The notes below the pieces were generated by a model. It was not told where the DNA came from and ran no database searches. It worked only from the letters and a program-made list of their open reading frames with translations. A stretch of DNA of 64,000 bases from Candidatus Latescibacterota bacterium (lineage in GTDB: Bacteria > Latescibacterota > UBA2968 > UBA8231), in NCBI GenBank assembly GCA_965223905.1, contig CBDCXV010000001.1:928001-992000 (forward strand). The letters are read 5' to 3'. Shown piece after piece: positions 3,271 to 21,089 of this stretch (within the stretch, counting starts at the first letter, position 1; every line of letters starts with the position of its first letter). A program made the position numbers and the translations under genes.

Positions 3271-4920
3271 CCTGAATTATTCATAAAATAGGCGATGTCC
3301 CCAGTATAAATGGTTGTTTATCCCTAAGTTAGGGGTAGACCAAAACAAAACCATTTGGAGAGGACACCGCGATGAAAAATTGGCATCACACTCTGTCGTT
3401 TGCAAGGGTCTCGGGCAAGAAAGTCGAAGCCGATTTCGATGGCGGCTGCACCACTCACGATGGGGGCCTGCTGCTGCTGAGAAAGGCCGAAGCCCACACC
3501 GGCGTCCTTAAGCGTATGGTGGCGGCGTTGCCGGATCGGCGCCATCCCAGTTACATCGACCATAGCAGCGAGGACCTCCTTCGCCAGCGCGTCTTTCAAA
3601 TCGCCTGCGGCTACGAAGACGCCAATGACAGCGACGATCTGCGCTGCGATCCGGGGCTGAAAGCCGCCTGCGAACGGGCGCCGTTGACGGGCCCGGATCT
3701 GGCCAGTCAGCCGACCCTGTCTCGTTTGGAGAACCGGGTCAGCCGCAGCGATCTCTACCGCCTTGCGCGCTCGTTGCTGGACACGTTTATCGCATCCTAC
3801 GAGAAGCCGCCGAAGAAGATCATCGTCGACATCGATGACACCGAGGATATCACCCATGGGGCGCAGCAACTGACGTTGTTCAACGCCTACCATAAAGAAT
3901 ATTGCTACATGCCCGTGCACCTCTACGAAGGGCATTCGGGGCGCTTGATTACGGCGATTCTGCGCCGGGGTCGTCGCATCAAGGGCGGCGAAGCGGCGGC
4001 GATTCTGCGGCGCGTTTTGGCGGCGATTGTCACGGCCTGGCCCAAGGTGCAGATCACGTTGCGGGGGGACTCGCACTTCAGCACCCCGGAGGTCCACGAG
4101 GTGTGCGAAGAGTATGGCCTGTCGTTTATCCTGGGCCAGGCTCCCAACTGCAAGCTGCACGAACTCGGGGCGCCGCTGATGGAGCAGGCGCGGGCTCAAG
4201 CCGAGGAGGGCACCGAAGAGGAGCCGGTGCGGCTCTTTACCCGTTTCGACTACCAGGCCAAGAGCTGGAAGCGCCCGCAGCGCATCCTCTACAAAGCCGA
4301 GGTTACCCAGGGCAAAGCCAATCCTCGCTTTGTGACCACCAACATCCCGGACCGAACCCCCAAGTTTTTGTATGAGAAGGTCTATTGTGCCCGCGGACGG
4401 GCGGAAGGATTCATCAAGAATCACAAGACCTTCCTGCATTCGGACCGCACCTCCTGCCATCGCTTCGCGGCCAATCAATTCCGTCTGTTTCTGCACAGCG
4501 CCGCCTACGTGCTCCTGCACGCCCTGCAGCAGATCGGCCTGCACGGCACGCGATGGGCGACGGCCACCTTCGACACGATCCGGCTTCGCGTGCTCAAAAT
4601 CGGGGCGAGGGTGCGCGAGCGGGCGAGGAGCATTCGTTTTCACTTTGCTACCTCGTATCCCCTTCAGGACGTGTGGAGGACGATCCTCTTCAACTTTGAC
4701 TCCAGCTAGCGTCCCACGGAGGAGGCTAAAAATCGATCACCCGCAAAACCAAGGGAGCACTGTGTTCAAATCCGACGAACTACCGCCTGAAACCGGGACC
4801 TGCGATCAGATACCGATGCAAAACCTGAACTCGACAGACACACGAGCACGGAAAAAGGCACCGGGCACTAAAAATATCGCGTGCGTCCTGCTCATCTCAG
4901 CGATTTGTGAATAATCCAGG
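3271..4920 (+). mobile_element. IS1380-family insertion sequence
   Basis: IR CCTGAATTATTCA / TGAATAATCCAGG; TTAA target duplication at 3267-3270 and 4921-4924. Confidence 0.92.
3372..4709 (+). CDS. IS1380-family DDE transposase
   Basis: FDGG..T.DGGLLL, GYEDAND, ASQPTLSRLEN, DIDDT, RGDSHF, YCARGRAE. Confidence 0.95.
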   Translation: MKNWHHTLSFARVSGKKVEADFDGGCTTHDGGLLLLRKAEAHTGVLKRMVAALPDRRHPSYIDHSSEDLLRQRVFQIACGYEDANDSDDLRCDPGLKAACERAPLTGPDLASQPTLSRLENRVSRSDLYRLARSLLDTFIASYEKPPKKIIVDIDDTEDITHGAQQLTLFNAYHKEYCYMPVHLYEGHSGRLITAILRRGRRIKGGEAAAILRRVLAAIVTAWPKVQITLRGDSHFSTPEVHEVCEEYGLSFILGQAPNCKLHELGAPLMEQARAQAEEGTEEEPVRLFTRFDYQAKSWKRPQRILYKAEVTQGKANPRFVTTNIPDRTPKFLYEKVYCARGRAEGFIKNHKTFLHSDRTSCHRFAANQFRLFLHSAAYVLLHALQQIGLHGTRWATATFDTIRLRVLKIGARVRERARSIRFHFATSYPLQDVWRTILFNFDSS

Positions 4921-5014
4921 TTAAGTTAACGCCTATTAGGGTTGATTAAGACTCCGGTCACGGGAGGGTACTCCGGAGATCCACCACCCTAAACCCCTTT
5001 ACAAGGAGCCAATA

Positions 5015-5439
5015 ATGAAGAAGATCATTCTCGCAGCAGGGGCATTGATGCTGATGGCCGGGCAGCTGCTGGCCGATATGCATGAAGGCCCGCCCCCCGA
5101 GGACATGCCGCAGATAACGCTCATGCCGCCACCGCCCGGGGAAGGGGAACCTCCACCCGAACCACCTGAGGATGTGGGCGAACCCCCCATGGACCCTGAG
5201 GCAGCCAAAGACTGGCTCCTCGGGATAACCTTCCCGATGATGGATAGCGATGGCAGCGGCGGATTGAGCTATGAGGAAGTGCGCGCCTGGGTGGCCTGGA
5301 TGCACATCCCGCCCATGGAGCCTCCCCCCGAAGGCGAGCCACCTCCCGAAGGTGAACCGCCACCCGAAGGTGAGCCACCCCCCGAGGGCGAACCGCCAGA
5401 AGGTGAGCCGGGTGCGCCTTGCGGCGACTTCATCGGCAA
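5015..5439 (+). pseudogene. Secreted Pro/Glu-rich EF-hand protein, truncated by IS91 end fragment
   Basis: Signal peptide, EF-hand loop DSDGSGGLSYEE, PPPEGE repeats; runs into IS91 sequence at 5440. Confidence 0.6.
5320..5410 (+). repeat. 18-bp coding tandem repeat (PPPEGE, about 5 units)
   Basis: Repeating CCNCCNCCNGARGGNGAR. Confidence 0.85.
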
Positions 5440-5691
5440 TCCGGACCTATCTGGAGGGGGTAGGGCTGCCGGCACGGCCTCCCCCGAGGGCCCCGCCTGA
5501 GCCGCAGTTCGAGTTCGCCGCCTGACCTGCCTTCTCGACCCGTCGCCGGGCGTACGGCTGGGTGTGCCCTCAACGGTCCCCTCAGGCCCCGGATTGATCC
5601 GGATACGGGCCGACAGGCAACCCAACGGTACTGCGAGCTCGGTCGAAAGACTGGCAAACGATCCTCAGGGGAGTTGCCGGACCCTGGCGGT
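5440..5691 (+). mobile_element. IS91 3'-end fragment lacking final ori bases
   Basis: Near-identical to about 1024-1273. Confidence 0.9.
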
Positions 5692-6270
5692 ATGTTGCAA
5701 TCAAAACGAGGGCTTGAGCGCAAAAGTCATACTGGTGAATTTTATTTACACTGAGTTTATTTGATCTGTGACAGCGCTCTCTGTGTTGCCGGCAACATCC
5801 TCGGCCCAGAAGCAGTAGTACTGATCATCGTCCGCAGCGTCAAGCTGAATGGTGCCGGTGTATGAAGTAGCGTTTGCCGGGGCGGTGGCGGCGCAGTTAT
5901 TATTGCTTTGTCTTTGGTATGAGAGGGTGGATGTGTTGAAGAGGTAGACGGCGCCAGTATCACTTTCGTCGCCATCATCGCCAACCGCCCCAATCACCAA
6001 GGTGTTGCCGTCAAGAGTTGCCGCAGAACCAAAGCTATCGCCGGAATCTAGATTAACGTCAAGTTTACCCGCCCCGCCGCCATTGTCTGAAATTTTTATC
6101 GTCTCTTACCATGACGAGCCGCTTATTTTGGCAAACAGGTAAACGGCGCCTTTGTTGGTTCCACCGTCATCATCGCCATATGCACCAACCATCAACGTAT
6201 CAGCTGAAGTTGTTCCGGTAAGAGCCACGGCGGAGCTAAAGTTGTCGTAGTCATCCAGGTCAACGGCTAG

Positions 6271-7897
6271 GTAACCGTTCAGTCCCCCCTGCAGTAGTTT
6301 GCGCATGTAAAGAAAATACTCAGCGAGTTTTCGGGTTCGTCGGTATCTTCGGGATCGGTTTTGTGTTGGCAATTTCTCCGATACGGGCGACCTCCATGAA
6401 AAGACCTCCTCAGACTGCGGTTTCCGAAAGCGAGTTGCGCACGCGCATTGTCCAGCTCGAGCAGGTCGTGGAACAACAGGCGGCGCGGATCGCGGAATTG
6501 GAGCAGGAACTGGCCCGCCGCAAGGGGCGATCCGGCGGCGGTGCAAAGGCCGCTTCGTCGGGATCGGGCGCTTCCTCCTCGCCGCGCTCCGAGTCCTCCG
6601 GTCGGCGCCGCTCCTCGGGGCGCTCGCCGGGCGCGCAGCCGGGCCACGAAGGGCACGGTCGCTCGTGGGTATCGGTCGAGGAAGTGGACCGTTTGATCCC
6701 GGTCAAGCCCAGCCAGTGCCGCCAATGCGGTCACACGCTGACGGGACACGATCCCCATCCGCAGCGCCATCAGGAGGTCGTCATTCCTCCGGTGCGCGCC
6801 CAGGTCATCGAGTATCAGTTGCACACCTTGCGCTGCCGTCACTGCGAGCGCCTGACCGAAGCCGACTGGCCTGAGGGCGTATCGCGGCACACCTACGGTC
6901 CCAGCGTGCAGGCCTGGGTCGGCCTGCTGGCCGGGGCCTACCGGATGAGCAAGCGCAACATCGTGAAGCTGTTGTCCGACGCCTTCGGCGTCGAGATGTC
7001 GGTGGGCACCGTCAGCCGCCTGGAACAGGAAGTGGCGGAGGCCCTGGCCCACCCGGTGGAGGAAGCGCGGGCGTTCGTTCGCCGACAGGGAATAGTCAAC
7101 GTCGACGAGACCGGCTGGCGGGAACGCCGCGCCAAGGCCTGGTTGTGGACGGCGGTGACGGAGGGCGTCACCGTGTTCGAAATTCGAAAAAGCCGGGGAC
7201 GGGACGGGGTCGATGAGGTGCTGGGTGCCGATACTAAGGCGATCGTCGGCTCCGATCGTTATTCGGCCTACGGACATTTGCCGCGGCGACGCCGGCAAGT
7301 GTGCTGGGCTCATCTGCGGCGCGCCTTCGAGGAGTTCGGGGCCCGGGACGAAGAGGCCGCCTGGGTCGGTCAACGGCTGTTGGACGCCAGCGAGCAATTG
7401 TTTACCTGGTGGCATCGAGTCCGCGACGGCACCCTGCAACGGTCCAGCTTCCAAGTCTACGTCAGCGGCTTGCGTGGGCGGTTTCGTAACTACTTGGGGT
7501 ATGGTCAGCAGTTTGCCGACGCCAAGACGGCGGCCACCTGCGCCAACCTCCGAGACCTCGGGCCGGCCCTGTGGACCTTCGTGCGCAGAGAAGGCGTCGA
7601 GCCGACCAACAACGAAGCCGAACGAGCCCTTCGTCATGGCGTGCTGTGGCGCCACACCAGCTTCGGCACCCACAGCGCCGAGGGCAGCCGCTTCGTAGAG
7701 CGTCTGCTCACGGTGCGCGATACCCTGCGACAGCAACAGCGCAACGTCTTCGACTATCTGAGGATGGCCTGCCACGCCGCCGTGCGCCAGCAGCCGGCGC
7801 CCTCGCTGCTGCCTCCAACCCACTCCGCCATTCGCTGATACCAACCTGCGACCATTCCTCTCCTGGGGCCTCATTAGCCAGGGGACTGAACGGTTAC
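6271..7897 (+). mobile_element. IS66-family element (single-ORF type)
   Basis: Perfect 17-bp IR GTAACCGTTCAGTCCCC; 8-bp target duplication ACGGCTAG at 6263-6270 and 7898-7905. Confidence 0.95.
6396..7838 (+). CDS. IS66-family transposase
   Basis: PGAQPGHEG, CxxC zinc fingers, VDETGW, SDRYSAY, QVCWAHLRR, EPTNNEAERALR. Confidence 0.95.
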   Translation: MKRPPQTAVSESELRTRIVQLEQVVEQQAARIAELEQELARRKGRSGGGAKAASSGSGASSSPRSESSGRRRSSGRSPGAQPGHEGHGRSWVSVEEVDRLIPVKPSQCRQCGHTLTGHDPHPQRHQEVVIPPVRAQVIEYQLHTLRCRHCERLTEADWPEGVSRHTYGPSVQAWVGLLAGAYRMSKRNIVKLLSDAFGVEMSVGTVSRLEQEVAEALAHPVEEARAFVRRQGIVNVDETGWRERRAKAWLWTAVTEGVTVFEIRKSRGRDGVDEVLGADTKAIVGSDRYSAYGHLPRRRRQVCWAHLRRAFEEFGARDEEAAWVGQRLLDASEQLFTWWHRVRDGTLQRSSFQVYVSGLRGRFRNYLGYGQQFADAKTAATCANLRDLGPALWTFVRREGVEPTNNEAERALRHGVLWRHTSFGTHSAEGSRFVERLLTVRDTLRQQQRNVFDYLRMACHAAVRQQPAPSLLPPTHSAIR

Positions 7898-7940
7898 ACG
7901 GCTAGTTTGCCCGCGCTGCCGTCGTTGTCCGAAATCTTCA

Positions 7941-8129
7941 GTGTCTCTTGCCAGGAGCTTTGCCTTTAATTTGGAACGCGTTCCCGTTCGCGTACGGCTG
8001 CAGCCCCGCTGGCAGAGCGGCAGCGTCCAGGATCTCATCAATGAATCTGAGCTGGCGCTGCAGGACGGCAGTTTCGAGGTAGAGATCGGGGCCTGGGGTG
8101 TGGCTGTCGTGCATTGCGACGAACGGTAG
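7941..8129 (+). pseudogene. C-terminal fragment of an unknown protein
   Basis: Short beta-rich ORF starting at the FG-GAP junction with no real start. Confidence 0.3.
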
Positions 8130-8209
8130 GAAAACATCCTATACGAGAGCATGGGCCTCCTCCATAAGGCCTTGTCCGATTCGTTTGCGGTTTCACCACC
8201 AATCAGGAG

Positions 8210-10081
8210 ATGGACGATATGAAGATCGTGCCGGTGCTTATCGGGTTCATGGTCGCGGGTACTTGCTGGGCTGGCGTCGTTCCCGGTAAAGGGGAGAATC
8301 CTGAAGCCGTTGCGGAGGTGGCCGCTGGCGAACTGGCGGTAGCCAACGCTTCCTGGTGGGGGTTCGACAGCGAGGATGCCACCGAGGCGCTGCAGGCGGC
8401 GATCAACTCGAAGGCGAAGACGGTCATCGTTCCCTACATGGGATCGCCGTGGGTTGTGCGGCCGATTTTCCTGCGCAGCAATCTGGAACTGGTCTTCGAG
8501 CCCGGCGTCCTGGTGCTGGCCAAGAAGGGGGAATTCAAGGAGCGATGGGATTGTCTCCTGACCGCAATCGGTTTGTCGGATATCACCATTCGCGGCTACG
8601 GCGCAACTCTACGGATGCGGAAGAGGGATTATCGCAACCCGCCCTATCCACCGAAGGAGGAGTGGAAGCACGGACTGAAAATTGAGGGCAGCAGGAGGAT
8701 ACACGTCGAAGGTCTTCGAATTGAAAGCAGCGGCGGCGACGGGATCTACATCGGATCCGGCGCGGGCCGAAGCAGCGAAGACATCGTGATCCGCGACTGC
8801 GTCTCGCACGACAACCACCGGCAGGGGATCAGCGTGACCGACGCCAAGAACCTGTTGGTGGAGAATTGTGTCTTCTCGGGAACGGAGGGCACCGGGCCAT
8901 CAGCCGGCATCGACTACGAGCCGGACAAACCGACACAGCTGCTGGTCAACTGTGTATTCCGCAACTGTCTTTTCGAGGACAACGCCGGACACGGGATGTT
9001 CGTTCGTGCCCATGATACGATCACCGCCGAGAGTCCCCCGATTTCGATTCGTTTCGAGAATTGTATCAGCCGGATGACCAAACCGGGCACGGGTGGCGAT
9101 TCCGGGATGTGCGTGCGGGTGCCGGGTGATCAAGGCCCACCAGGTACGATCGAGTTCATCAACTGCCTGTCGGAGAACAGCGGGCAGGCAGGGGCCAACG
9201 TCTATGGTCATTCGGTCGGCCACTTGAACATCCGCTTCGTCGGCTGCAACTGGATCGACTCGCAGGGCACGGCGGTGGTGCTCAATATGCAAGAGCCGTC
9301 GGCGACGGGTACGGGCAGCATCGAGTTCGTGAACTGCTCGGTGTACGAGGAGAAAACGGGTCCGACCGTTCAGGTCATGACACTGCGGGGCAACGATTAC
9401 GGTGACGATGTCGTTGGCGCGATCACGGTGCACAACAGACACGGCGCTCGCATCGCTTCGGAGCCGCGTGGCGTCAATGTTAACCTTTCTGTCGTCGACA
9501 GCAGGAGTGCAGAGGCAGTCGGCATGTCGGGGCCGGCAGAAGTGGCGGGACGAACCATGCCGGCCCTCGACCGGCGTGCGGTCGATCAACCAGGCTACGA
9601 CGACGAGGCTACCTTCGGCGAGCTGTGGCAGACGCATGACTTCATCGTCGATTTGCCGAAAGTCTGGCGGTTCAGGCTTGACTTCAAAGATGAAGGGCAG
9701 CAGCAGGACTGGGGCGGCGTTGTCGTTGACAAGACGCAATACCAACCGATCAAGATCGGCGAATGGTGGGAACCGCAGGGCCATCAGTACGACGGCGTCG
9801 CCTGGTATCGCGTCGATTTCGACGTACCGGCAGCAGCGCAGGGCTACAAACTGGCGCTCTCATTTGGCGCGGTTGATGAATCGGCCTGGGTCTACCTCAA
9901 CGGCGTGCTGATCGGCGAGCATGATCTCAATGATTGGGGATGGGACAAGCGTTTCGAGATCGCCCTCGGTGATGCAGTGCGCATCGGTGAGAAGAACACC
10001 CTGGCTGTTCGCGTCCGCGACCGCGCGTGGTATGGCGGCATCTGGAAGTCGGTAAAGTTGGTAGGAGAGAAGAGGGACTGA
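8210..10081 (+). CDS. Secreted right-handed beta-helix protein with C-terminal GH2-type sugar-binding domain
   Basis: Signal peptide; DATEALQAAINS, SGGDGIYI, NHRQGISV; YDGVAWYR, FGAVDESAWVYLNG, GGIWKSV. Confidence 0.8.
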   Translation: MDDMKIVPVLIGFMVAGTCWAGVVPGKGENPEAVAEVAAGELAVANASWWGFDSEDATEALQAAINSKAKTVIVPYMGSPWVVRPIFLRSNLELVFEPGVLVLAKKGEFKERWDCLLTAIGLSDITIRGYGATLRMRKRDYRNPPYPPKEEWKHGLKIEGSRRIHVEGLRIESSGGDGIYIGSGAGRSSEDIVIRDCVSHDNHRQGISVTDAKNLLVENCVFSGTEGTGPSAGIDYEPDKPTQLLVNCVFRNCLFEDNAGHGMFVRAHDTITAESPPISIRFENCISRMTKPGTGGDSGMCVRVPGDQGPPGTIEFINCLSENSGQAGANVYGHSVGHLNIRFVGCNWIDSQGTAVVLNMQEPSATGTGSIEFVNCSVYEEKTGPTVQVMTLRGNDYGDDVVGAITVHNRHGARIASEPRGVNVNLSVVDSRSAEAVGMSGPAEVAGRTMPALDRRAVDQPGYDDEATFGELWQTHDFIVDLPKVWRFRLDFKDEGQQQDWGGVVVDKTQYQPIKIGEWWEPQGHQYDGVAWYRVDFDVPAAAQGYKLALSFGAVDESAWVYLNGVLIGEHDLNDWGWDKRFEIALGDAVRIGEKNTLAVRVRDRAWYGGIWKSVKLVGEKRD

Positions 10082-10400: not shown

Positions 10401-10404
10401 TTCA

Positions 10405-10615
10405 CAGCTGCGCCTGGAGTTTCCGAAAACGGTCGCGCGAGAGGTACAGCCGCTCGCGGTGGAACATCCCCGGCTCGGCGTACTTTTCGGCCAGCCGGGC
10501 CTGGAAGGCCTCGTCGCTTTCGGGGCGCTTCCGTCGGGCGCGGGTGGTCCCCGTCTTCGAGCCGGCGATCAGCCGCGCCCGGCGGGCTTCGAACTCGGCC
10601 TCCGTCTCGCCCCGA
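10405..10615 (-). pseudogene. Internal fragment resembling phage PD-(D/E)XK exonuclease
   Basis: GETEAEFEARRARLIAGSKTGTT...PESDEAFQARLAEKYAEPGMFHRE recalled from phage-type nucleases; unverified. Confidence 0.45.
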
Positions 10616-10619
10616 AGAA

Positions 10620-11062
10620 CCCAGATACCAATGCTCGCTACGCATGGAGCGGCATATTTAAGATGAAAGGCGGGACGGTGAATTTGGAGCACACCGAAAT
10701 CCTGGACACTCCTCCTCCCATCGGCCGCCCGCTTCTCGTTCAAACACAAGCTGGAGATGGTCAGGTCGTTTTGACCTGGGACGACCCGTACCCCGACGAC
10801 TACAGCATTTCCGGGTGGGAGTACCAGGTCAACAGCGGGGGGCCCGATGACTGGGGCTCCTGGACCGAATTTCCCCGCAGCACCCGCCTCACCCGGGAAG
10901 GCACTGTTCCCAACCTGGAGCATGAGACACAGCACAAATTCCGGGTTCGCTCCACCAACTCCACCGGAACCGGCCCTGGTACTATCCCCGTAAAAGTCTC
11001 CCTGATGACGGCTGAATTCAGCGCCCCAGGATATGAGGTGATCGAAGGGAAATCGGTGGGGG
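10620..11062 (+). pseudogene. Fibronectin type III domain fragment
   Basis: AGDGQVVLTWDDP...ISGWEYQ...[23 protein letters not shown]. Confidence 0.7.
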
Positions 11063-12122
11063 TCACGAAGAGGCCGAGGATGTTCGGGCGGCCGAACTCG
11101 TTGCCGAAGGCGGCGCCGCCGAGGGGGCCTTCGGTCATGATCTGCAGCGGCGTCGCCAGGCGCTCGGGGAACTCGGCGAAGCCGCGCTCCCAGGGCTGCG
11201 CGAATCCCGGGATGCGCAGGTGGGAGGTGAAAAAGGCGCAGAGGCCGGCCTGGGACCGGCCGCCGATCCCGGTCGCCCCCTCGTCGGTAGGCGAACGGGC
11301 CCTCCGGGTCGGGGCGGAACGAGGGCGTCCGCCAGCCGGCGATGACGCCGGCGTTGTCGGCGTAGGCCTTCACCGTCCCCTGCGGGCAGCGCGCGTGGGT
11401 GTTGCGGATCATGGCGAACAGGGTGCGCTCGCGCCGGGCGCCGTCGATGGTCCAGTCGGCGTTGAAGATCTTGTGGCGGCAGTGCTCGGAGTTGACGTTG
11501 GCGAACATCACCAGCTCGACGTCGGTGGGGTCGCGCCGGAGGCCTGCGAAGGCGTCGAACAGGTAGTCGACCTCGTCATCGGACAGGGCGAGCCCCATCT
11601 CCCCGTTGGCCCGCTCCAGGGCCGCGGCCCCCTCGGCGAGGGACACCCGCTGCAGCGGCCGCGGAGCGACCTCGGAGAAGAGGGAGGCGTCTTCATGCAG
11701 CACCGCCTCGGTCATGCGGTCGTGCAGCAGGGGCAGCAGGGCGGCGGGGGAGAAAGGGCCGTCGGCGAGGATCCGGTACTCGGTGCCGCGCTCGATGCGG
11801 GCCGCCGAGGTCAGGCCGCAGTTGCGCAGGATGTCGGTCGCCTTGGTCGACCATGGGGAGATGGTTCCGGGGCGCGGAGCGATGCGGATGCAGGTGTCTG
11901 CGGAGGCGCTGAGAAGCCCGGCCCCGGGAGGGTCCCCGGCGGCGGTGTTGCCAAGGACCAGGGCCTCCAGGCGGCGGCGGTCGCCTCCGTCCCAGTTCAC
12001 CAGGTAGAAATGCCGCGCCTCCAGCCCCCGGACCGCGGGCTCGGCATGCCGGCAGCGCTGCAGCAGCGCCTCCCGGCGGAAATCGGACAGGGCGGTGGGG
12101 CCGGGAGCCGCAGTATGTTCAT
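11061..12122 (-). pseudogene. purL: FGAM synthase (large PurL) N-terminal fragment
   Basis: [59 protein letters not shown]; frameshift near start, internal deletion near 11287, truncated near 11061. Confidence 0.9.
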
Positions 12123-12526: not shown

Positions 12527-13669
12527 ATGGAGTGGTTGAGCAAAAACGTCTGGCAGGTGGCCGCCTTGTTAGTGGCCGTCGTGTCCCTGTGCGTGGCCTA
12601 CTGGCGGGCCCGCACTGCGCGTCTGGATAATCTGCAGACGCGGTTTCAGAAGGGGGCGGAGATGTTTGGCGGGACTGACACTGCCACCTTCCTCGGCGGC
12701 CTGTATGAGCTTCAGCAGTTGGCGAAGCGGTACCCGAAGGAGTACCACGTCGTCGTCATGAAGGTGCTTACCGGATACGTACGAGAAAAAATGCGCGCTA
12801 GCGATGTTGCGGAGGGAGACGGTCTGCCCGACATACGGGATCCGCTTCGAGAGCGTGCGGAGGAAGTGCTGAGGGTGATTGGTGGCCGGTCGGGCCGCGG
12901 CATAAAGGAGGAGCGTGACTCCGGGTACCGGGTTGACCTCACGGAAGTGGACGCGAGGGGGATGCAGCTTCCGGACTGTGACTTCTCGGACATCAACGGT
13001 AGTGGGTCCCTCTTCTCGCAGGCGAACTTGGAGCGTTCTGTGTTTCGGTCCGCACAGCTCAGGGGTACGAAGTTCAACGGGGCTCGGCTCCGGTCGGCGA
13101 ATCTGTCGCAGGCTGATCTGGAGTTTGCGTACATGGCGGGTGCCGATCTGACGTTCGGATCTCTCGCCGGATCGCGGATGCGTTGGGCGGACATTCCGGG
13201 ATCCCTCTACATGTGTGACCTATCCGATGCTCGGATGTTCGAGGTTCGGGGTCTGCAGCAGAAGACGCTAGACTCGGCGGACAGGTTGATCCGTACCCCA
13301 CCGTCAATCGTCGCTTGCCTGGATGCGGAGTCAGGAGACGAACTGAAGTGGAAGGGGGGAGACCCGGGCCCGCTGCCAAAGGTGGCGGAAGTGTTCGGAG
13401 GGCGGAGGGCGACGCCGGTTTCTGAGCGTGCGTTGGCGAGAGTGCTGCCGCGGCGCGCGCCGATGGAAGAAGTCGTCGCGTCGCAGAAGATTGACGAGGG
13501 GCTGCGTTTCTATGTCGAACGGATCGGGCGCCACGGCCATGGGGGGAAGTATGTGGTGTACCGATGGGAGATGGGCTGCGGATCTTCGAGTCACACGAAG
13601 TTGTACGAGGGGGATCGCGAGGAACCGGCGCTGGATGCGCTGAAAAAACATGTGGAGGAGCACCGATGA
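12527..13669 (+). CDS. Membrane-anchored pentapeptide-repeat protein
   Basis: N-terminal TM helix; ANLER/AQLRG/ARLRS/ANLSQ/ADLEF repeats. Confidence 0.85.
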   Translation: MEWLSKNVWQVAALLVAVVSLCVAYWRARTARLDNLQTRFQKGAEMFGGTDTATFLGGLYELQQLAKRYPKEYHVVVMKVLTGYVREKMRASDVAEGDGLPDIRDPLRERAEEVLRVIGGRSGRGIKEERDSGYRVDLTEVDARGMQLPDCDFSDINGSGSLFSQANLERSVFRSAQLRGTKFNGARLRSANLSQADLEFAYMAGADLTFGSLAGSRMRWADIPGSLYMCDLSDARMFEVRGLQQKTLDSADRLIRTPPSIVACLDAESGDELKWKGGDPGPLPKVAEVFGGRRATPVSERALARVLPRRAPMEEVVASQKIDEGLRFYVERIGRHGHGGKYVVYRWEMGCGSSSHTKLYEGDREEPALDALKKHVEEHR

Positions 13670-13811
13670 GGCCCCCCGATGAACATAGCCCAATGGCTCG
13701 GTTCGGTGGTCCTGCCCCTCGGGTCCGAGAATAAGGAAGCCGTATTCCGGCCTGATTCCAGTCGCTCCCACGCTGGGCCCACTTCCGCCACTTGACGAAC
13801 TCTCAGCTTAC

Positions 13812-13855
13812 CAACACATTCGTTGCCAACGCAACTGTTGCCAACGAATGTGTTG
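13812..13855. promoter_or_regulatory. Three tandem CAAC-N6-GTTG palindromic boxes (putative operator)
   Basis: Boxes at 13812, 13827 and 13842; outer two are exact reverse complements; ends 15 bp before ATG 13871. Confidence 0.6.
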
Positions 13856-13870
13856 TCAAAAGGCGTGCCT

Positions 13871-15121
13871 ATGGTACTCACGAAAGCCGGAGCCAACTGG
13901 GTCGAGGGGGATCGGTTCTTCAACCGGGAGGTGGAGCTTGAGGCCCTTGCGGAGCGGGTCGGGGACGGCACTCATACCCTGCTGACCGCCCAGCGGCGCA
14001 TGGGCAAAACGAGCCTGGTCCGGGAGCTGCTGCGCCGGCTGCAGGAAGAGGGGCGCTTTCAGACGGTCTTCGTCGACTTGGAGGACGCCGCAGCCCCGGC
14101 GGACGCCATCGCTGAGATAGGGGCTCGGTCCCGGCCCGTCCGGGGCGTTTGGCAGCGGATAAAGTCGGGATTCGCCAGCACCCTGAGAGAGGTCGGTGAT
14201 CGAGTCGATTCGGTGTCCATCGCCGAGGTACAGGTCAAGCTCCGGGCGGGGATCGACGCCGGGAACTGGCGGCAGAAAGGGGACGAGGTCTTGGCCGCCC
14301 TGGCTGAAAGCGACCTGCCCGTGGTGCTCGCAATCGACGAGCTGCCGATTCTCGTCAACCGGCTGCTCAAAGGGGAAGACCACCGCATCACCCCGGAGCG
14401 GCGGCGGGCGGCGGACGAGTTCATGGCTTGGCTCCGCAAGAACGGCCAGGTCCATCGAGGCCGCGTCTGCCTGATCCTCGCCGGCAGCGTGAGCCTGGAG
14501 CCGATCCTGGCACAGGCCGGGCTCAGCGCCCACGCGAACATCTACTCAACCTTCGATCTGAAGCCTTGGGACGACCAGGCAGCAGCAGGCTGCCTTGCGG
14601 CTCTGGCGCAGACCTACGGCCTCGACCTTCCCCTTGACGTTCGGCGGGAGATGTGCCGGCGGCTGCGATGCCAGATCCCCCACCACGTGCAGCAGTTCTT
14701 CGACCACCTCCATGAGCATCTGCGCCGTGCCGGCCGGCGCGAAGCCACGATGGAAGATGTGGAGCGCGTGTACTCCTCCGAGATGCTCGGCGTCCGCGGA
14801 CAGATGGATATGGAGCACTACGAGGGCCGGCTGAAGATGGTGCTCGGGAGGGAGGGCTACCGGACGGCGCTCGAGATCCTGACCGAGGCGTCGGTGAGTG
14901 AAGGTGGGTTGCGGGCCGATGCCGTCGCCCGATATCGCGAGCTGGAGGAGCGGGAGGAAGCCGGCGGTGATCCGGTGGCGGTCCAGGACGTGCTTCTACT
15001 GCTCGAACACGATGGGTACCTGGAGCGGCACGGCAGCGGCTACCGATTCGTTTCCGGGCTCCTCGAAGACTGGTGGCGCGCACGGCACGGCGGATACTTC
15101 ACCCCGATCGAACGGCGATGA
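13871..15121 (+). CDS. STAND/AAA-like P-loop ATPase
   Basis: FFNRE, Walker A AQRRMGKTS, Walker B VVLAIDE, LAGS sensor, C-terminal helical/wHTH-like region. Confidence 0.85.
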   Translation: MVLTKAGANWVEGDRFFNREVELEALAERVGDGTHTLLTAQRRMGKTSLVRELLRRLQEEGRFQTVFVDLEDAAAPADAIAEIGARSRPVRGVWQRIKSGFASTLREVGDRVDSVSIAEVQVKLRAGIDAGNWRQKGDEVLAALAESDLPVVLAIDELPILVNRLLKGEDHRITPERRRAADEFMAWLRKNGQVHRGRVCLILAGSVSLEPILAQAGLSAHANIYSTFDLKPWDDQAAAGCLAALAQTYGLDLPLDVRREMCRRLRCQIPHHVQQFFDHLHEHLRRAGRREATMEDVERVYSSEMLGVRGQMDMEHYEGRLKMVLGREGYRTALEILTEASVSEGGLRADAVARYRELEEREEAGGDPVAVQDVLLLLEHDGYLERHGSGYRFVSGLLEDWWRARHGGYFTPIERR

Positions 15122-17938
15122 CGGTAACCGCTCGGAAATTTAACCCGGGGTTCCTCACCGACGAGGAGCTGACTGCCTCGTTTTGCGTGCGCAAGGCGGA
15201 GTTCGACTCCATGGTCGAGATGCTGCGCGGATGCACAGGTACCTCGAATCCGCATCAGATCGTGATCGGCCCCCGTGGAAGCGGCAAGACCATCCTGCTC
15301 CTGCGCGTGGCGGCAGAGGTTCGCCGGGACCCGGAGCTGTCGCGCCGCTTCTTTCCCGTTGTCTTCGCCGAGGAGAGCTACGAGGTCGCAAGTGAGGGGG
15401 GGGTTCTGGCTCGAAGCTCTCTCCCGGCTGGCGGACCAGTCGCCACCCCGGGACGACGCTCCGGACCTGCGGCTCACCTTCCGGGACCTGCGCGCCATTC
15501 AGGACGACCAGACCCTCGGCGAACGCTGCCTCGGCGCGCTTCTCGACTTCTCCGACCGCGAGGACAAACGGCTGGTGCTGATGGTCGAGAACTTGAACAT
15601 GATCTTCCGTGACATGGCGGACCGCGAAGCCGGCTGGCGGCTGCGCAAGATCCTGCAGACGGAGCCGCGCATCATCCTGCTCGCCAGCGCCACCAGCCGC
15701 TTCGCCGAAATCGACCACCCGGACCACGCCCTCTACGACCTGTTCCGGGTCAGCACCCTTCAGCCGCTCGATACCGAGGAGTGTGCAAGGCTGTGGGAAA
15801 CGGTCTCTGGACAGCGCCCCCCTCGCCAGACAATCCGGCCAATGGAGATTCTCACCGGCGGCAATCCCCGCCTCGTCGCCATCGTGGCAGGCTTCGCCGC
15901 GGGGCGCTCCTTCCGCGAGCTGATGGACGATCTCCTCGACCTCGTGGACGAGCATACGGAGTACTTCAAGAGCCACATTGAAGCCCTCCCCGCCCAGGAG
16001 CGGCGGGTCTACCTGGCGCTGGCCGACTTGTGGAAGCCGGCGACCACGAGGGAAATCGCGGAGCGCTCCCGGATCGAGACGAGCAAGTGCAGCGCCCAGC
16101 TTGCCCGCCTGACCGAACGGGGAGTTGTCCAGGTGTCAGGCGGCACCCTCCGGCGCAAGCAATATTACCTGACCGAGCGGCTGTACAACATCTACTACCT
16201 GCTGCGTCGCAACGGCGGACCGGACTCCCTGATCCAGGCCCTCATCCAGTTCATGGAGGTGTTCTACTCCCACTCCGAGTTGAGGGCTATCGGCGTAAGG
16301 ATGGCCCTGGAGGCGCGCAGCTTGGACGGGGAGTTGCGATCGTTGCACCGGACTGCGGTTGAACAGCTGACGCAGCTGCCAGTGATGGCCGGGCATCGAG
16401 AAGAGCTGCTTGCGCTCCTTCCCAAGGAGGATTCCGAAGAGCTGGCGGCTGCCAAGGCGCACTTGCTGAGAGCGGTCGAGTTGCAGGAGGAAGACCCGGA
16501 GGAGTCGCTGGCCACCTGGGACGAGGTGGTGCGGCGGTTCGGGGAGAGTCGGTCACCCGAGGTCTGCCAACTGGTCGCCATGGCCCTCTTCTGCAAAGCG
16601 GAGGCTCTCGGTGAGCTGAACCGACCGGAGGAAGCACTGGCCGCCTATGAGGAAGCGGGCCGGCGATTCGGCGAGGACGATACCGAGGTTCATGTCGAGA
16701 TGGTCGCCAGCGCCCTTTTCAGCAAGGGGGTCACACTCGCCGAGCTCGACCGGACGGAGGAATCGCTGGCTGTCTTCGATGAGGCGGTGCGGCGATTCGA
16801 GAAGAGCGAGGAAACGGCCCTTCTCGAGATGGTAGCCAGAGCCCTTTTCAACAAGGGGTTCGTACTCGGCCGCTTGAACCGAGCGGATGAAGAACTGGCT
16901 GCTTACCAAGAGGTCGTGCATCGATTCGGCGAGTGTCGGTCACCAGAGGTTCTTGAACCGGTCGCCGCATCCCTCTTCTGCAAGGGCGCCGCCCTCGTCG
17001 CCCTGAACCGACAGGAGGAGGCGCTGGCCGCCTATGACGAGGTGGGGCGCCGACTCGGAGAGAGCGATACGGAGTTGCATCTTGCGTTGCTCGCCAGGGC
17101 CATCGTCAACAAGGGGGTCGTCCTCGGCGAGCTGAACCGAACCCAGGAATCGCTCGCGGTCTTCGATGAGGCGGTGCGGCGATTCGAGGAGAGCGAAACA
17201 CCGGATCACCTCGAGATCGTTGCCAAGGCTCTTGTCAACAAGGGCGCTGTGCTCGGCGAGCTGGACCGAATAGAAGAAGAACTGCTGGCCTACGAGGAGG
17301 TTTTGCGGCGATTCGGGGAGAGCGAGACACCGGTCCTTTTGGAACTGGTCGCTATAGCCCGCACCTACAGGGGGATGACACTCGGGAATTTGGGCAGGTC
17401 TGAGGAAGGCCTGGCGGCTCTTGAGGATGTCGTGCAGCGATTACTGGACAGCGATTCTCCCGCGCTCCGGGCACGGGCAGAGGACGCCCTCGTCGAAAAA
17501 GCCGAACTCGAGCTGGAGTGCCGGCACTACGAGGCAGCCGCAAGTACCGTTAGCCTTGTACTCGATGAAAACAACACGCAATCACAGGAGAACCGGTCGC
17601 GTGGTCACCTGATACGGGCGCAAGCGAGCCTGCGCAGCGGCAACCCCGAGAGGTGTGCGAAAGACATCCAGACGATCCTCGAGATTCTACCGGATCGCGA
17701 TTCGCTGCCGGAAATCCACTACGAATTGATGCAGTTCAGCATCGACCTGGGGGCGGAGGCCATGATCGAGATTATCCAGGCATCTCCATCCGCGAAGCTG
17801 TTGCTGCCGCTCACCACGGCCCTCGAACAGGAACTGGGCCGCAAGCCGCGTGTGCCCCAGGAGGTCGAGGAGGTCGCCGGGGATGTCCGGAAGGACTTGG
17901 CTTGGTTGAGGGGATTGCGATCCGCTGGCACCGAGTAG
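15118..17938 (+). CDS. STAND-like ATPase-wHTH-TPR protein, frameshifted at G8 tract 15396-15403
   Basis: ATGA overlap with upstream gene; GPRGSGKT, LVLMVEN, TGGNPR, HTH-like TTREIAERSR, seven full 43-aa TPR-like repeats. Confidence 0.85.
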
Positions 17939-18771
17939 AGGACGGCATGCAGGAAAAACAGGGAGCTACTCTTTGAAATCGCTGAAGACGCTTTGTTTGT
18001 TAGAAGCGGACCCCATTCTTTTGACAGCCGGACAGTAGAGGTAAGGTGGATGAAGAGCCTTCTGATGAAAAAGTCCCGGTTATTCAACTTCTCCCTCTTG
18101 TTCGCCTCGGCCCTGTTCGTGTCCAACAGCCTTGCCCAGGACTATACGCGCTGGGGGTTGCCCGAGGGGGCCGTCGCACGCCTTGGTAGAGGTTCTATAT
18201 CTGAAGTGGCGTATTCCCCCGATGGCGCTCGGCTCGCGGTAGCCAGCAGCATCGGCATCTGGATCTACAACGCGCCCCTCGGAACCGAAGTTGCCCTGCT
18301 CACGGGACATAGAGGCAGAGTTCTTACCGTGTCCTTCTCTCCGGATGGCACCATGCTTGCCAGTGGAGGTAAGGATGGGGCGATACGGTTGTGGGAAATG
18401 GGCGACTGGCAGTCTCGGGCAACCCTGGAGTGGCATGGGGGTTGGGTCCATTCCGTAGCTTTTTCACCGGACGGCACCACCCTGGCCAGTGGACATGGGG
18501 ATGGCACGGTTCGGCTGTGGGATGTGGAAACCGGCGGCTGCAAGGTCACTTTGGAGGCGAATACGTATGGGGTCTCTTCCGTGGCGTTTTCGCCGAATGG
18601 CCGAACCCTGGCCACTGGGGATGAAGCTAACGAATACAACCCCTCCAAGGTTCGGCTCTGGGACGTAGACACCGGCCAGCTCCTGGCCGCTCTGGCAGGG
18701 CATGGGACGAGGATCTCTTCCGTAGCGTTTTCGCCCGATGGCAAAACGCTGGCCAGTGGAGGTTATGACGG

Positions 18772-19626
18772 GAACCTATCTCAAAATTGAAATTGTTTAA
18801 GTAAAATCAAAATGGATGCAAGTTGGACGAAGCCAAGGAAATTCTCCGGATACAATTCCCAGCGAGTGATCACTCGACGCTGCCATTGAAGCCAAGCAAA
18901 GAATCTCTCAACCATCCAACGCCGCACATAACGCCGCAATCGCCGTCCATCCTGAGTCTTTTTCTTGGTCCGATTCTGGCGATGCGGGGCGATCATCTCG
19001 ATCCCGTCTTTCTTAAGTTCTTCATCCAACGAATCGCTGTCGTACGCTTTGTCACCGATCAAGTTGTCAGGTTTGTCTTCGATCAGGTAAAAGTCAAAGG
19101 TCAACTGAACCAGCGTCACTTCATGATGGTTCGCTGCATGCGTGCTCACCGACAAGGGAAGCCCATTGCCGTCCACGATCCCCATGACCCGCACCCCCTT
19201 ACCTCGCTTGCTGTGGCCGACATCGGCACCTCCACCCTTGGCCGCCGAGAACATGCCGTCGATGAAAGCTTCCGATTCGTCCAGGTCCCCTTGCTCGTGA
19301 AGGGTATTGGCCAAGTCCATGAGAACATCGCGCAGCACCTCGTTGCGACACCAATTTTGAAAGCGACGATGCACCGTTTTGTAGTTCGGATAGCCCTGCG
19401 GCAGCATGTGCCATTGGGCACCGGTATTGAGAATCCAAAGGACGGCTTCAAGAACCTCACGTGTGGCAACTGGTTTGCGGCCCGGATGGCTTTTGGGACG
19501 ATGTTCTTCAGGAAAGTGATGACGGATTCGCTCCCATTGCTTGTCGGTCAAAGTAACCATATAAATAATGATACATTATCATCAATCAGAACTCAAGATT
19601 AAATTTTGTGATTTTGAGATAGGTTC
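18772..19626 (-). mobile_element. IS5-family insertion sequence
   Basis: Perfect 16-bp IR GAACCTATCTCAAAAT; 2-bp GG duplication. Confidence 0.93.
18781..19560 (-). CDS. IS5-family transposase
   Basis: LTDKQW, WILNTGAQW..LP, TVHRRFQNW, IGDKAYDS, RWMVERFFAWL. Confidence 0.95.
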   Translation of the reverse strand: MVTLTDKQWERIRHHFPEEHRPKSHPGRKPVATREVLEAVLWILNTGAQWHMLPQGYPNYKTVHRRFQNWCRNEVLRDVLMDLANTLHEQGDLDESEAFIDGMFSAAKGGGADVGHSKRGKGVRVMGIVDGNGLPLSVSTHAANHHEVTLVQLTFDFYLIEDKPDNLIGDKAYDSDSLDEELKKDGIEMIAPHRQNRTKKKTQDGRRLRRYVRRWMVERFFAWLQWQRRVITRWELYPENFLGFVQLASILILLKQFQF

Positions 19627-21089
19627 GGGACAGTCCGCTTGTGGGCTGGGGCCACCGGCAAACTACTGACAGTTATAGAGAGTCACAGGAGTTGGGTGAC
19701 CTCCGTGACATTTTCTTCGGATGGAAAATTGCTGGCCAGTTCAGGTGGAGACTATAGGGATTCGAGTATATGGGGTGACTTCAATGTCCGGGTGTGGGAC
19801 GTCGATACCGGGCAACTCGTTTGGCACTCTAGGACGGGGCATAGGCGTTCTATCTCATCCGTAGCGTTCTGGCCGAATAGCCATATAGTGGCCAGTGCGA
19901 GTGACGATGGGACAATACGGCTGTGGGAAGGAGGCGACCAGAAGGCCATTCTTGAGAGACATTGGTACCGGATCTTGTCCGTGGCGTTTTCACCCGACGG
20001 CCAGACCCTGGCCAGCAGGGGGCTGAGTGAGAGAGTCTGGTTGTGGGATGTGGGCAGCGGCCAACAAAAGGCCATCCTCGCAGGATATACGGGCTCAAAT
20101 AATTGGGTCTCTTCCCTGGCGTTTTCACCGGACGGCCGCACCTTGGCCAGTGGGAGCGTGGGCACCAGAATCGTGTTGTGGGACGTGAACAGCGGCCAAC
20201 CTGCGGACACCCTTGCAGGTCACGATGGGGAGATCTCTTCGGTGGCGTTCTCCCCGGACGGGCACACCCTGGCCAGTGGGAGTTGGGACGGCTCGGCCCG
20301 GTTGTGGGACGCAGGCAGCGGTCAACAAAAGGCCGTCCTTAAGTATCGCAGGGGTGCTGACCGGGCTGGTTATGTCCAGGCCGTGGCGTTTTCACCGGAT
20401 GGGAAAACACTTGCCAGTGGGAGTCGGGGCAGTATGATCCGGTTGTGGGATGTGGGCAGCGGCGAACTCCTGGCCACCTGTACAGGGCGTATGGGTTGGG
20501 TCGAGTCCGTGGCGTTCTCGCCGGATGGTCTCACCTTGGCCAGTGGGAGTCAGGATGGGACGGTTCGGTTGTGGGACGTGGACAGCGGGCAACAAAAGGC
20601 CATTTTGGAGGGGCATACCACTTCTGTCAATTCCGTGGCGTTCTCACCGGACGGCTACACTCTGGCCAGTGGGGGGCGGGACGGGATGGTTCGGTTGTGG
20701 GACGTGGACAGCGAGCAACCCAAGGCCATTCTTGCAGGGTACAGGGAGGGGTATGTCCATTCCATGGCCTACTCCCCGGATGGGCACATCCTGGCCAGTG
20801 GGAGCCTTGATGGCACCATACTGCTGTGGGATATGTCGCCATACATCATGCCTCAATCCGCCACGGAAGTTGAAGTCTCCATCCTAGGCGCCGCGGTCGA
20901 GAACTTGACCGTCGAGTTTGCCCGCACCATTGCTGGTCACCGGCCCCACTATGCTTGGAGCGCCACCACCGACGCGACCGGCCAAGTGGCCCTGACCATA
21001 ACCAGCGCGGATCCCAACGGCGTCGGCGGACTCTACGAGGTCCGAGTTCGCAACGAGGCCGGCGAGGTGGTGGGCCAGTGGAACAGCAT

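Follow-up and report, generated by a model that had tools for sequence, protein, structure and literature searches.

A 2026 census of the signal transduction ATPases with numerous domains (STAND) counts 589 clades, finds defence and non-defence clades interspersed, and offers in the Avs sensor KpAvs8 a precedent for degenerate ATPase motifs (PMC13581612). Its background for defence-gene frequency is roughly 1.5%, and it screened Avs families for triggers against phage gene libraries. A second body of work concerns genes nested inside other defence systems. Payne et al. (bioRxiv 10.1101/2024.01.29.577857) report that 62.7% of Hma systems contain embedded genes and that 7/9 tested Hma-embedded candidates defended against phage, and they argue that even a single embedded instance merits testing. 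Here we compare with these systems a pair of overlapping ATPase genes, A and B, from a 64,000-nucleotide stretch of a Candidatus Latescibacterota genome (contig CBDCXV010000001.1, positions 928,001 to 992,000). We call this whole stretch the window, and all positions are given in its numbering unless another locus is named.

The pair is a real, self-contained two-gene module made up of an operator-controlled promoter, A and B. Its anatomy, its operator and the division of labour between sensor and helper that we propose below make it most likely a so far unnamed system of defence against phages or mobile elements, of the STAND or NLR (nucleotide-binding leucine-rich repeat receptor) kind, whose output would not come from an attached enzyme. 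We hold this reading with moderate confidence. The arguments for it come from the strictness of the pairing, from the operator that travels with the module, from the way the sensor arm evolves and from the company the pair keeps in some genomes.

Pairing, boundaries and domain anatomy

To collect relatives we scanned a single genome of each species for a pattern; this gave 126, of which the best 80 loci were kept, and every count over 80 loci refers to them. A homologue of B starts within tens of bases after A in 80/80 of these loci, which belong to nine named phyla. A and B, overlapping or set close together, belong to a single transcription unit. This is far beyond chance, and it settles a point on which an initial annotation of this DNA, made from the letters alone, had let its case depend, namely whether the pairing is conserved among homologues. 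The window's own genome repeats the pattern: it has five A-like genes (100, 74, 41, 34 and 31% identity), and behind every one of them stands a B-like gene, the most distant with 27% identity. The Walker A motif, VENL or LENL, TGGxPRL and the winged helix-turn-helix (wHTH) are kept in B of all five pairs. An in-frame TGA conserved between genomes in the fifth paralogue was considered as a recoding signal and rejected, as it is the stop codon of A read into the overlapping start of B. Two loci have a second, diverged A-B pair beside the first, in tandem in L010 (9702-12842 and 14965-17187) and inverted in L012 (about 14400-16100, minus strand).

DNA similarity between loci sets in at about 13806-13823, some 50-65 nt before the start of A, and ends at the stop codon of B. 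Inside these borders A and the nucleoside triphosphatase (NTPase) part of B have 72-77% DNA identity between the window and proteobacterial and acidobacterial loci. The flanking genes vary from locus to locus and no neighbour is conserved. Even with the same-genus locus L001 the window shares only purL, on one side of the pair. There the interval between purL and A holds a helicase with a restriction endonuclease (REase) domain and an HTH-M78 peptidase, where the window has a pentapeptide-repeat gene (12527-13669, + strand; its protein has a hydrophobic N-terminal stretch). The initial annotation had suggested that the pair acts through this neighbouring membrane protein. We reject it as a partner: tblastn finds no match to it in any of the 80 loci or in the further loci compared, and other genes occupy its place in L001.

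All the sequence features that the initial annotation had read in the two proteins themselves stand (Table 1). It described two P-loop ATPases sharing an ATGA, a canonical Walker B (LAIDE) in the first, and in the second a variant Walker B (MVEN), a wHTH-like region and 43-residue tetratricopeptide repeats (TPR), and it called both proteins STAND-like. Both are indeed STAND/ATPase_2-like NTPases. For gene A, which has an FFNRE.EL motif at its N-terminus, ATPase_2 (PF01637) is matched by 35/35 family members at E<=1, the best at 1.5e-11. The window protein scores 31 bits for AAA_22 (cut-off 27) and 27.8 bits for ATPase_2, under its cut-off of 33.2. The nSTAND1 family is weakly matched by 31/35 relatives and MCM4_WHD, also weakly, by 8/35. 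A profile search of the PDB places archaeal-type ATPases as the closest solved proteins (2qen at 1.7e-5, 2fna at 0.034). In the C-terminal region D381, G382, Y383, F393, S395, L397 and W402 are invariant, the 33-41% paralogues included.

The gene A family is large: at 50% identity, a threshold of E<=1e-30 gives 791 clusters and one of E<=1e-10 gives 2169. In the best 150 clusters the complete-looking members have about 385-440 residues, many shorter entries look like fragments, and three are longer (490, 514 and 700 aa). One homologue is annotated simply as 'ATP-binding protein', and the ESM Atlas contains neither the window's gene A product nor the homologue P0163. P0293 (700 aa, possibly truncated at its N-terminus) joins an A-type NTPase to ordinary TPRs and a B-like conserved tail. 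This single fused case may be a weak hint that A and B are functionally linked and, together with the conservation of the B tail, it gives weak hints only that the tail works with an A-type module. Another apparent fusion, P0016, is a B homologue whose N-terminus contains roughly one quarter of A; we set it aside as probably a read-through call.

Gene B has the layout of a STAND sensor: NTPase, the GxP motif (TGGNPRL), winged helix and TPR. Pfam adds weak matches to nSTAND_NTPase5 and NACHT, and matches to AAA_16 and ORC-CDC6-like that are confined to the P-loop region. The NTPase modules of A and B are, by their profile alignment (hhalign probability 66%, E 5.6e-5, 188 columns), distant paralogues. 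The repeats have a period of 129 nt (43 aa) with a higher-order period of 387 nt (Tandem Repeats Finder), and 8-9 units stack in register. Over 40 homologues of B, mean pairwise identity is 0.88-0.93 in the wHTH, 0.81 in the NTPase and 0.60, the lowest value, in the TPR array. The ratio of nonsynonymous to synonymous substitution (dN/dS) is 0.14-0.19 in the NTPase, 0.09-0.17 in the wHTH and 0.38-0.53 in the TPR array, which is 2-5x the others. Homologues of B range in length from 811 to 1455 aa. Low identity in the repeats, variable length and raised dN/dS together suggest the evolution of a sensor and speak for a defence system.

The window's copy of B is predicted to be inactivated by one extra G, and the broken frame implied by the initial annotation, which proposed a phage challenge 'with the frame repaired', is a +1 shift in a run of eight Gs. 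The homologue P0002 (97% identical, 939 aa) reads through uninterrupted as ...EVASEGGFWLEAL, which requires 7 Gs. We compared contigs from public metagenome runs (X1, X3, X4 and X6) across the run of Gs. Run X1, which may be the window's own sample, has the exact 8-G form in one contig (depth 25.9, 0 differences) and one G fewer in a second, more diverged contig. Contigs with one G fewer also occur in X3, X4 and X6, from other studies, where 8/601, 1/214 and 1/160 letters differ from the window. Because the exact 8-G contig is found in X1 and contigs of the 7-G type in other runs, the break looks like a real, recent, strain-level homopolymer slip; a shared error is conceivable if X1 is the assembly data. 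Outside the break, comparison with orthologues gives dN/dS values that indicate purifying selection on B.

Table 1. Coordinates of the A-B module and its upstream sites in the window
Feature	Position	Strand	Remarks
-35-like hexamer TTGACG, putative promoter	13792..13797	+	read from sequence
Putative operator array, four sites, 15-bp period	13807..13860	+	
Operator site 1, CTTACCAAC	13807	+	
Operator sites 2 and 3, exact GTTGCCAAC	13822 and 13837	+	
Operator site 4, GTTGTCAAA	13852	+	
Gene A, 416-aa sensor-less ATPase of the nucleotide-binding oligomerization domain (NOD) type (ATPase_2/nSTAND-like), C-terminal winged helix	13871..15121	+	
Gene A Walker A, AQRRMGKTS	13988..14014	+	G45, K46, T47, S48 invariant in 35/35 aligned sequences
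Gene A canonical DE Walker B, VVLAIDELP	14321..14347	+	D156, E157, L158 invariant (35 aligned)
Gene A winged-helix-like C-terminal region (LEHDGYL...YRFVSGLLEDWW)	14978..15085	+	predicted fold
ATGA, gene A stop overlapping gene B start	15118..15121	+	
Gene B 5' part, frame 1	15118..15403	+	NPGFLTDEEL N-terminal motif conserved
Gene B Walker A, GPRGSGKT	15268-15291	+	
G8 run with +1 frameshift	15396..15403	+	intact form: 7 Gs
Gene B 3' part, frame 2	15404..17938	+	stop 17936-17938
Gene B variant Walker B, LVLMVENL(N)	15572-15595	+	V156, E157, N158, N160 invariant in 40/40 aligned homologues
Gene B TrmB-like wHTH	15989-16213	+	Pfam TrmB 31.2 bits, cut-off 25.6
Gene B 43-aa TPR array	16457-17617	+	TPR_12 1.8e-16 and other TPR families
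Gene B conserved tail, about 100 aa	17618-17935	+	

The operator array

The conserved array of short palindromes between the -35-like hexamer and the start of A is a new finding of this work. It forms an inverted repeat as well, with arms of 19 nt at 13812-13830 and 13837-13855. The window has 3 exact sites where 0.32 are expected, a number reached in 1/100 shuffles. Allowing one mismatch, the palindrome GTTGSCAAC occurs at least once within -90..-1 of A in 79/80 loci and at least twice in 48/80; the controls gave 2/77 at 1 kb upstream and 6/80 inside A. The spacing between sites is exactly 15 bp in 59/62 cases. TTGAC lies within 90 nt upstream of A in most of the listed loci, and when several loci are aligned it appears as TTGACA. 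A consensus scan for promoters and terminators returned no promoter and a single terminator-like site (minus strand), below the shuffle expectation; since it found no full sigma-70 site, we infer the promoter. Between 8000 and 26000 no known RNA feature reaches its Rfam gathering threshold, and the window has no tRNA.

The array belongs to the module and to little else. In the 7.9-Mb genome, paired sites with the 15-bp spacing occur 3 times, two of them upstream of the two closest A-B pairs and the third likely by chance; other spacings occur 0-1 times. The paralogous pairs with 41% and 33% identity (L087 and L088) have variants of their own, repeats of GTTGACAAC/GTTGAA and of TTGCCAAAA, and no clear array was seen upstream of the fifth pair. 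In the homologue P0262 the called N-terminus 'MLATIMLATLMLATRVLATE', at residues about 70-100 with a five-residue period, looks like the 15-bp array read as protein, probably from an over-extended gene call.

The array accompanies the module from phylum to phylum, differs between paralogues and is without further targets in the genome, and for these reasons its binder is most likely encoded by the module. We would look first to the TrmB-like wHTH of B, because it is the most conserved part of B, and the winged helix of A would be a further candidate. The function most likely served is autorepression over the promoter. This bears on the proposal in the initial annotation that the pair acts through DNA binding. 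The array does argue for DNA binding by a wHTH of the module, but as autoregulation and not as an effector output. Should the pair prove to be a defence system, the operator, which is short and conserved, and the natural allele that is still intact would give experiments a ready handle.

It might be argued that such an operator belongs to a regulator with no immune role, related to MalT, the LAL proteins and AfsR. B would sense a metabolite or protein through its TPRs and, together with A, switch DNA binding at GTTGSCAAC, thereby controlling its own level and further targets. The combination of NTPase, TPR and a DNA-binding-type wHTH is what such a regulator would have, as is a conserved operator, and the high conservation of the wHTH within B agrees with it. 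So do the many loci without a recognised defence neighbour and the mixing of defence and non-defence STAND clades (PMC13581612). However, no regulon is visible, since the paired operator stands in the 7.9-Mb genome only at the module's two promoters and the likely chance site. No neighbour is conserved across loci, hence there is no target operon, and neither A nor B has a LuxR/GerE-type output domain. Five diverged paralogous pairs, at least two of them with diverged upstream repeats (L087 and L088), and a rare and patchy spread fit immune receptors better. We consider this regulator unlikely. If it were nonetheless correct, the operator and its paralogue variants would make a clean system for studying the insulation of duplicated sensor modules.

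Tandem 15-bp repeats beside a pair of genes also resemble iterons, which raises the idea that A and B maintain a mobile element as ORC/Cdc6-like initiator or partition proteins. The layout of AAA+ plus winged helix, the weak matches to ORC-CDC6-like and orc1/cdc6 over the P-loop, and the movement of the pair between genomes could all be read this way. Against this, no integrase, transposase, Rep or Par gene travels along and homology stops at the borders of the module. The plasmid and viral collections searched do not contain the pair, and it sits on long contigs, mostly titled 'chromosome: 1'. The repeats lie between the -35 box and the start codon, as operators do, and replication has no use for a TPR array that is long and variable. 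We find a maintenance module very improbable.

Spread, genomic company and proposed function

By their record titles the 80 loci fall in Pseudomonadota (27), Acidobacteriota (18), Chloroflexota (17), Latescibacterota (6), Binatota (4) and Gemmatimonadota (4); three phyla are named once each and one title gives no phylum. The amino-acid identity of A to the window's ranges over these loci from 57 to 90%. The distribution is patchy. In the window's phylum 40/168 genomes have a match and 10 of 14 families have none; in the class of L006 only 5/401 sampled genomes have one, all of them strong (best E about 1e-190 or lower). The loci examined lie on long contigs, most titled 'chromosome: 1'. On our reading the module is horizontally mobile, with a patchy spread that crosses phyla.

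Near-identical sequence occurs in runs labelled sponge metagenome (X3 and X6), from at least two studies, and Spongia is named in the title of one related record. The remaining taxa are typical sponge associates. With its high identity across phyla and its near-identical copies in sponge runs, the module clearly marks the flow of genes inside a single host-associated community. The same observations could be taken to mean that the pair is a symbiosis factor of sponge-associated bacteria, for example a cytoplasmic sensor of host signals, enriched by habitat and not by phage pressure. Sponge symbionts typically have WD40 and pentapeptide repeat proteins, and genes of both kinds lie nearby in the window. 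However, a defence system confined to a habitat-restricted gene pool would account for the distribution just as well. The embedding in defence islands and Hma systems in 15/80 loci is not expected of a host-interaction factor, and inspection by eye, with no prediction run, revealed neither a signal peptide nor a secretion signal. We regard a symbiosis factor as quite improbable.

The neighbours of the pair were screened with greedy longest-ORF calls (ORF, open reading frame), BLAST clusters present in at least 3 loci, and Pfam and PADLOC on one representative per cluster. In GC-rich DNA the greedy calling also gave antisense shadow ORFs (families F2, F7, F12 and F43). The PADLOC nearest-neighbour scans give lower bounds, as they covered the 25 commonest families, and a second scan excluded 12 known-positive loci and the 11 longest ORFs (975-1759 aa). 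HmaC is a neighbour in 11 loci. The pair lies between HmaC and HmaB-HmaA in L018, L022, L034 and L036, and between HmaC and an SNF2 gene in L006 and L015. Septu PtuA and/or PtuB were found in 7 loci (L006, L007, L008, L011, L012, L017 and L034), and Menshen NsnA/B/C in 5, among them L029. One locus, the same-genus L001, has an RmrA/CapP-like HTH-M78 peptidase, a superfamily 1 (SF1) helicase with a DUF559 REase domain and a Sacsin-like protein. The union is at least 15/80 loci in four phyla. The association with defence genes, which the initial annotation had held to be needed, therefore stands for a minority of loci, four of them cleanly embedded in Hma systems, and is not seen by this screen in the other 65/80.

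Some of these neighbourhoods deserve a description of their own. In L029, from a Vicinamibacterales genome, sets of NsnA/B and NsnC/B/A (assigned by cluster) stand on either side of the pair. In L001 the flanks at 4596-9712 and 13969-18029 hold the SF1 helicase with its DUF559/MTES_1575 REase domain, the RmrA/CapP-like peptidase, the Sacsin-like protein of 1008 aa and a 345-aa ORF; by their domains these genes look like a small defence island beside purL. L015, L016, L018 and L032 each have, within an Hma island and directly upstream of the pair, a 202-aa protein that belongs to no family (cluster F21). In L018 it adjoins a 370-aa protein of the metallo-beta-lactamase fold, and unscanned ORFs of about 370 aa stand there in some of the others. 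The F21 protein and its neighbour may be another embedded cassette.

Several observations weigh against a defence system, and we set them out together. No recognised defence neighbour was found in 65/80 loci in this crude screen, and some loci have housekeeping neighbours instead (acetate kinase, CoA-transferase, aldo-keto reductase, MFS). The window's own neighbourhood, with a beta-helix protein, a purL fragment, the pentapeptide protein, WD40 genes and an insertion sequence, has no defence gene. The 15 positive loci are not independent, since Hma islands may move together with the pair. In agreement with the initial annotation, Pfam, PADLOC and NCBIfam recognise no nuclease, TIR, protease or other effector family in A or B, and because of this no killing or blocking mechanism can be named; the same searches found no effector family in four intact homologues of B (P0002, P0008, P0004 and P0013; 939-1439 aa). 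No defence model of PADLOC or NCBIfam matches A or B beyond the level of P-loop and wHTH. The best PADLOC match is mad8, at 5.2e-5 and 20.9 bits over 55/314 positions (14-68). A tree of A (FastTree, no bootstrap, with two rows that contain internal stops kept with X) has 13 changes of phylum label against a minimum of 8 and a shuffled mean of 45; as it clusters largely by phylum, transfers across phyla must be few relative to spread within them. There is no relative among 2.9 million viral contigs and none at E<=1e-10 among 72,556 plasmids, so the mobility has no identified vehicle.

With these points in the balance we still favour a defence system, and we suggest that it would work as follows. 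In the resting state a wHTH of the module on the 15-bp-spaced array would keep expression of the operon low. B would be the sensor: its Walker B (hhhhEN) probably binds ATP and hydrolyses it poorly, and its fast-evolving TPR array, variable in the number of its units, would bind the trigger, most likely a protein of a phage or other invader. B would be held off until this arm binds the trigger. ATP-bound B could then recruit A through the homologous NTPase modules. A, with canonical Walker A and B motifs, would be the hydrolysing 'helper' subunit that assembles with activated B, and the assembled A-B complex would be the active species. The output is the weakest step of the mechanism. Candidates would be DNA binding by the winged helices of the oligomer, recruitment of a host factor, or consumption of nucleotides by A.

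A bolder version is one that we put forward tentatively and would ourselves call doubtful. By analogy with paired NLRs in eukaryotes, an effector-less NOD-TPR sensor and a sensor-less NOD helper might assemble with each other once an invader is sensed and act on invader or host DNA through ORC-like winged helices, occluding or remodelling it without any enzyme. Paralogous pairs would be insulated from each other by their operator variants, and horizontal spread would run chiefly among sponge-associated bacteria.

The window has further features on either side of the pair. The purL gene at 10402-12000 (- strand) is the N-terminal part only (FGAR-AT_N and linker in a 531-aa ORF), whereas purL of L001 has 1332 aa. 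It looks truncated because only this part is present and because DNA homology to the L001 gene ends at window position 11067. On the other side, a transposase of the IS4/IS5 type (DUF4096 and DDE_Tnp_1, 18781-19560, - strand) lies between WD40-repeat ORFs at 17993-18790 and 19639-21438 (+ strand), and it may have split one WD40 gene. Farther on, two 300-nt blocks (21192-21491 and 22406-22705), 1214 nt apart, are 100% identical. They form a tandem duplication in which the beginning of a WD40 gene occurs twice, with ORFs at 21502 and 22716 that have the same N-terminus.

Comparison with known systems

The initial annotation could not assign the pair to a named system, and no system in PADLOC or NCBIfam matches it. 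We found no description of the pair in the literature; the supplementary tables of Payne et al. 2024 and of PMC13581612 may list the family. The text of PMC13581612, in the parts available, describes no paired or effector-less system, and its tables of 589 clades may include the clade of B.

The closest likeness is to Avs/AVAST (Avs1-21). Both have a P-loop NTPase with GxP, a winged helix and then a long TPR-like sensor that varies between relatives; both occur in defence islands and are transferred horizontally; and some Avs proteins also have degenerate ATPase motifs (KpAvs8; PMC13581612). There are differences too. The pair has no attached effector domain, N-terminal or other. It has an obligate sensor-less NTPase partner (80/80) and its own operator array, and Avs has neither. 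The Walker B of gene B is hhhhEN. The Avs models of PADLOC-DB 2.0.0 give no match to A or B at E<=0.1.

Taken by itself, gene A is like the ATPase_2 proteins (PF01637; 2qen and 2fna), with their FFDRE..EL, the xRRxGK[ST] Walker A, the hhhhDE Walker B and the C-terminal winged helix. It differs from them in always standing with a TPR-bearing partner and an operator. A table in PMC3424549 lists a DUF234/PD-(D/E)XK domain for COG1672, and Pfam detects no such domain in gene A or its family members.

With the Hma-embedded candidates (HEC) and the PDC models the likeness is one of position. In at least 4 loci the pair is nested between hmaC and hmaB-hmaA, and it also stands beside Septu and Menshen, the kind of setting meant by 'guilt-by-embedding'. 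It differs in that most copies, the window's included, are not embedded. The HEC and PDC models of PADLOC-DB 2.0.0 give only weak P-loop matches (PDC-S27 at 2.8e-3 and PDC-S01 at 3.5e-3), so the pair can be placed in the 'embedded candidate' class that Payne et al. describe and yet corresponds to none of the candidate models listed there.

Three other memberships were considered and rejected. MADS does not apply, as the mad8 match is partial and no other mad gene is among the window genes examined. For ORC/Cdc6, the match to PF24389 covers only positions 5-58 of 571, and the score for TIGR02928 is 16.7 bits where the cut-off demands 181. The MalT/LAL regulators share with the pair the combination of NTPase, helical-repeat sensor and DNA binding, and autoregulation is plausible for the pair. 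However, its candidate for DNA binding is an internal TrmB-like wHTH and not a C-terminal LuxR HTH, it has no conserved target operon or regulon, and it has a second ATPase partner. With no LuxR/GerE HTH, no conserved neighbour and no extra operator sites in the genome, we exclude it from that group; TPR_MalT is matched only in the long B homologue P0004.

Finally, there are the paired NLRs, the sensor and helper receptors of plants and NAIP-NLRC4. The putative helper A differs from theirs in having no recognisable death or effector domain. The likeness is an analogy at the level of NTPase class: a NOD sensor with a repeat arm stands beside a related NOD without one. In the literature covered, this sensor/helper layout is described for plants and animals and not for bacteria. 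As a defence system, A and B would make up a receptor of the STAND type that consists of an obligate pair of related NTPases with no attached enzyme.

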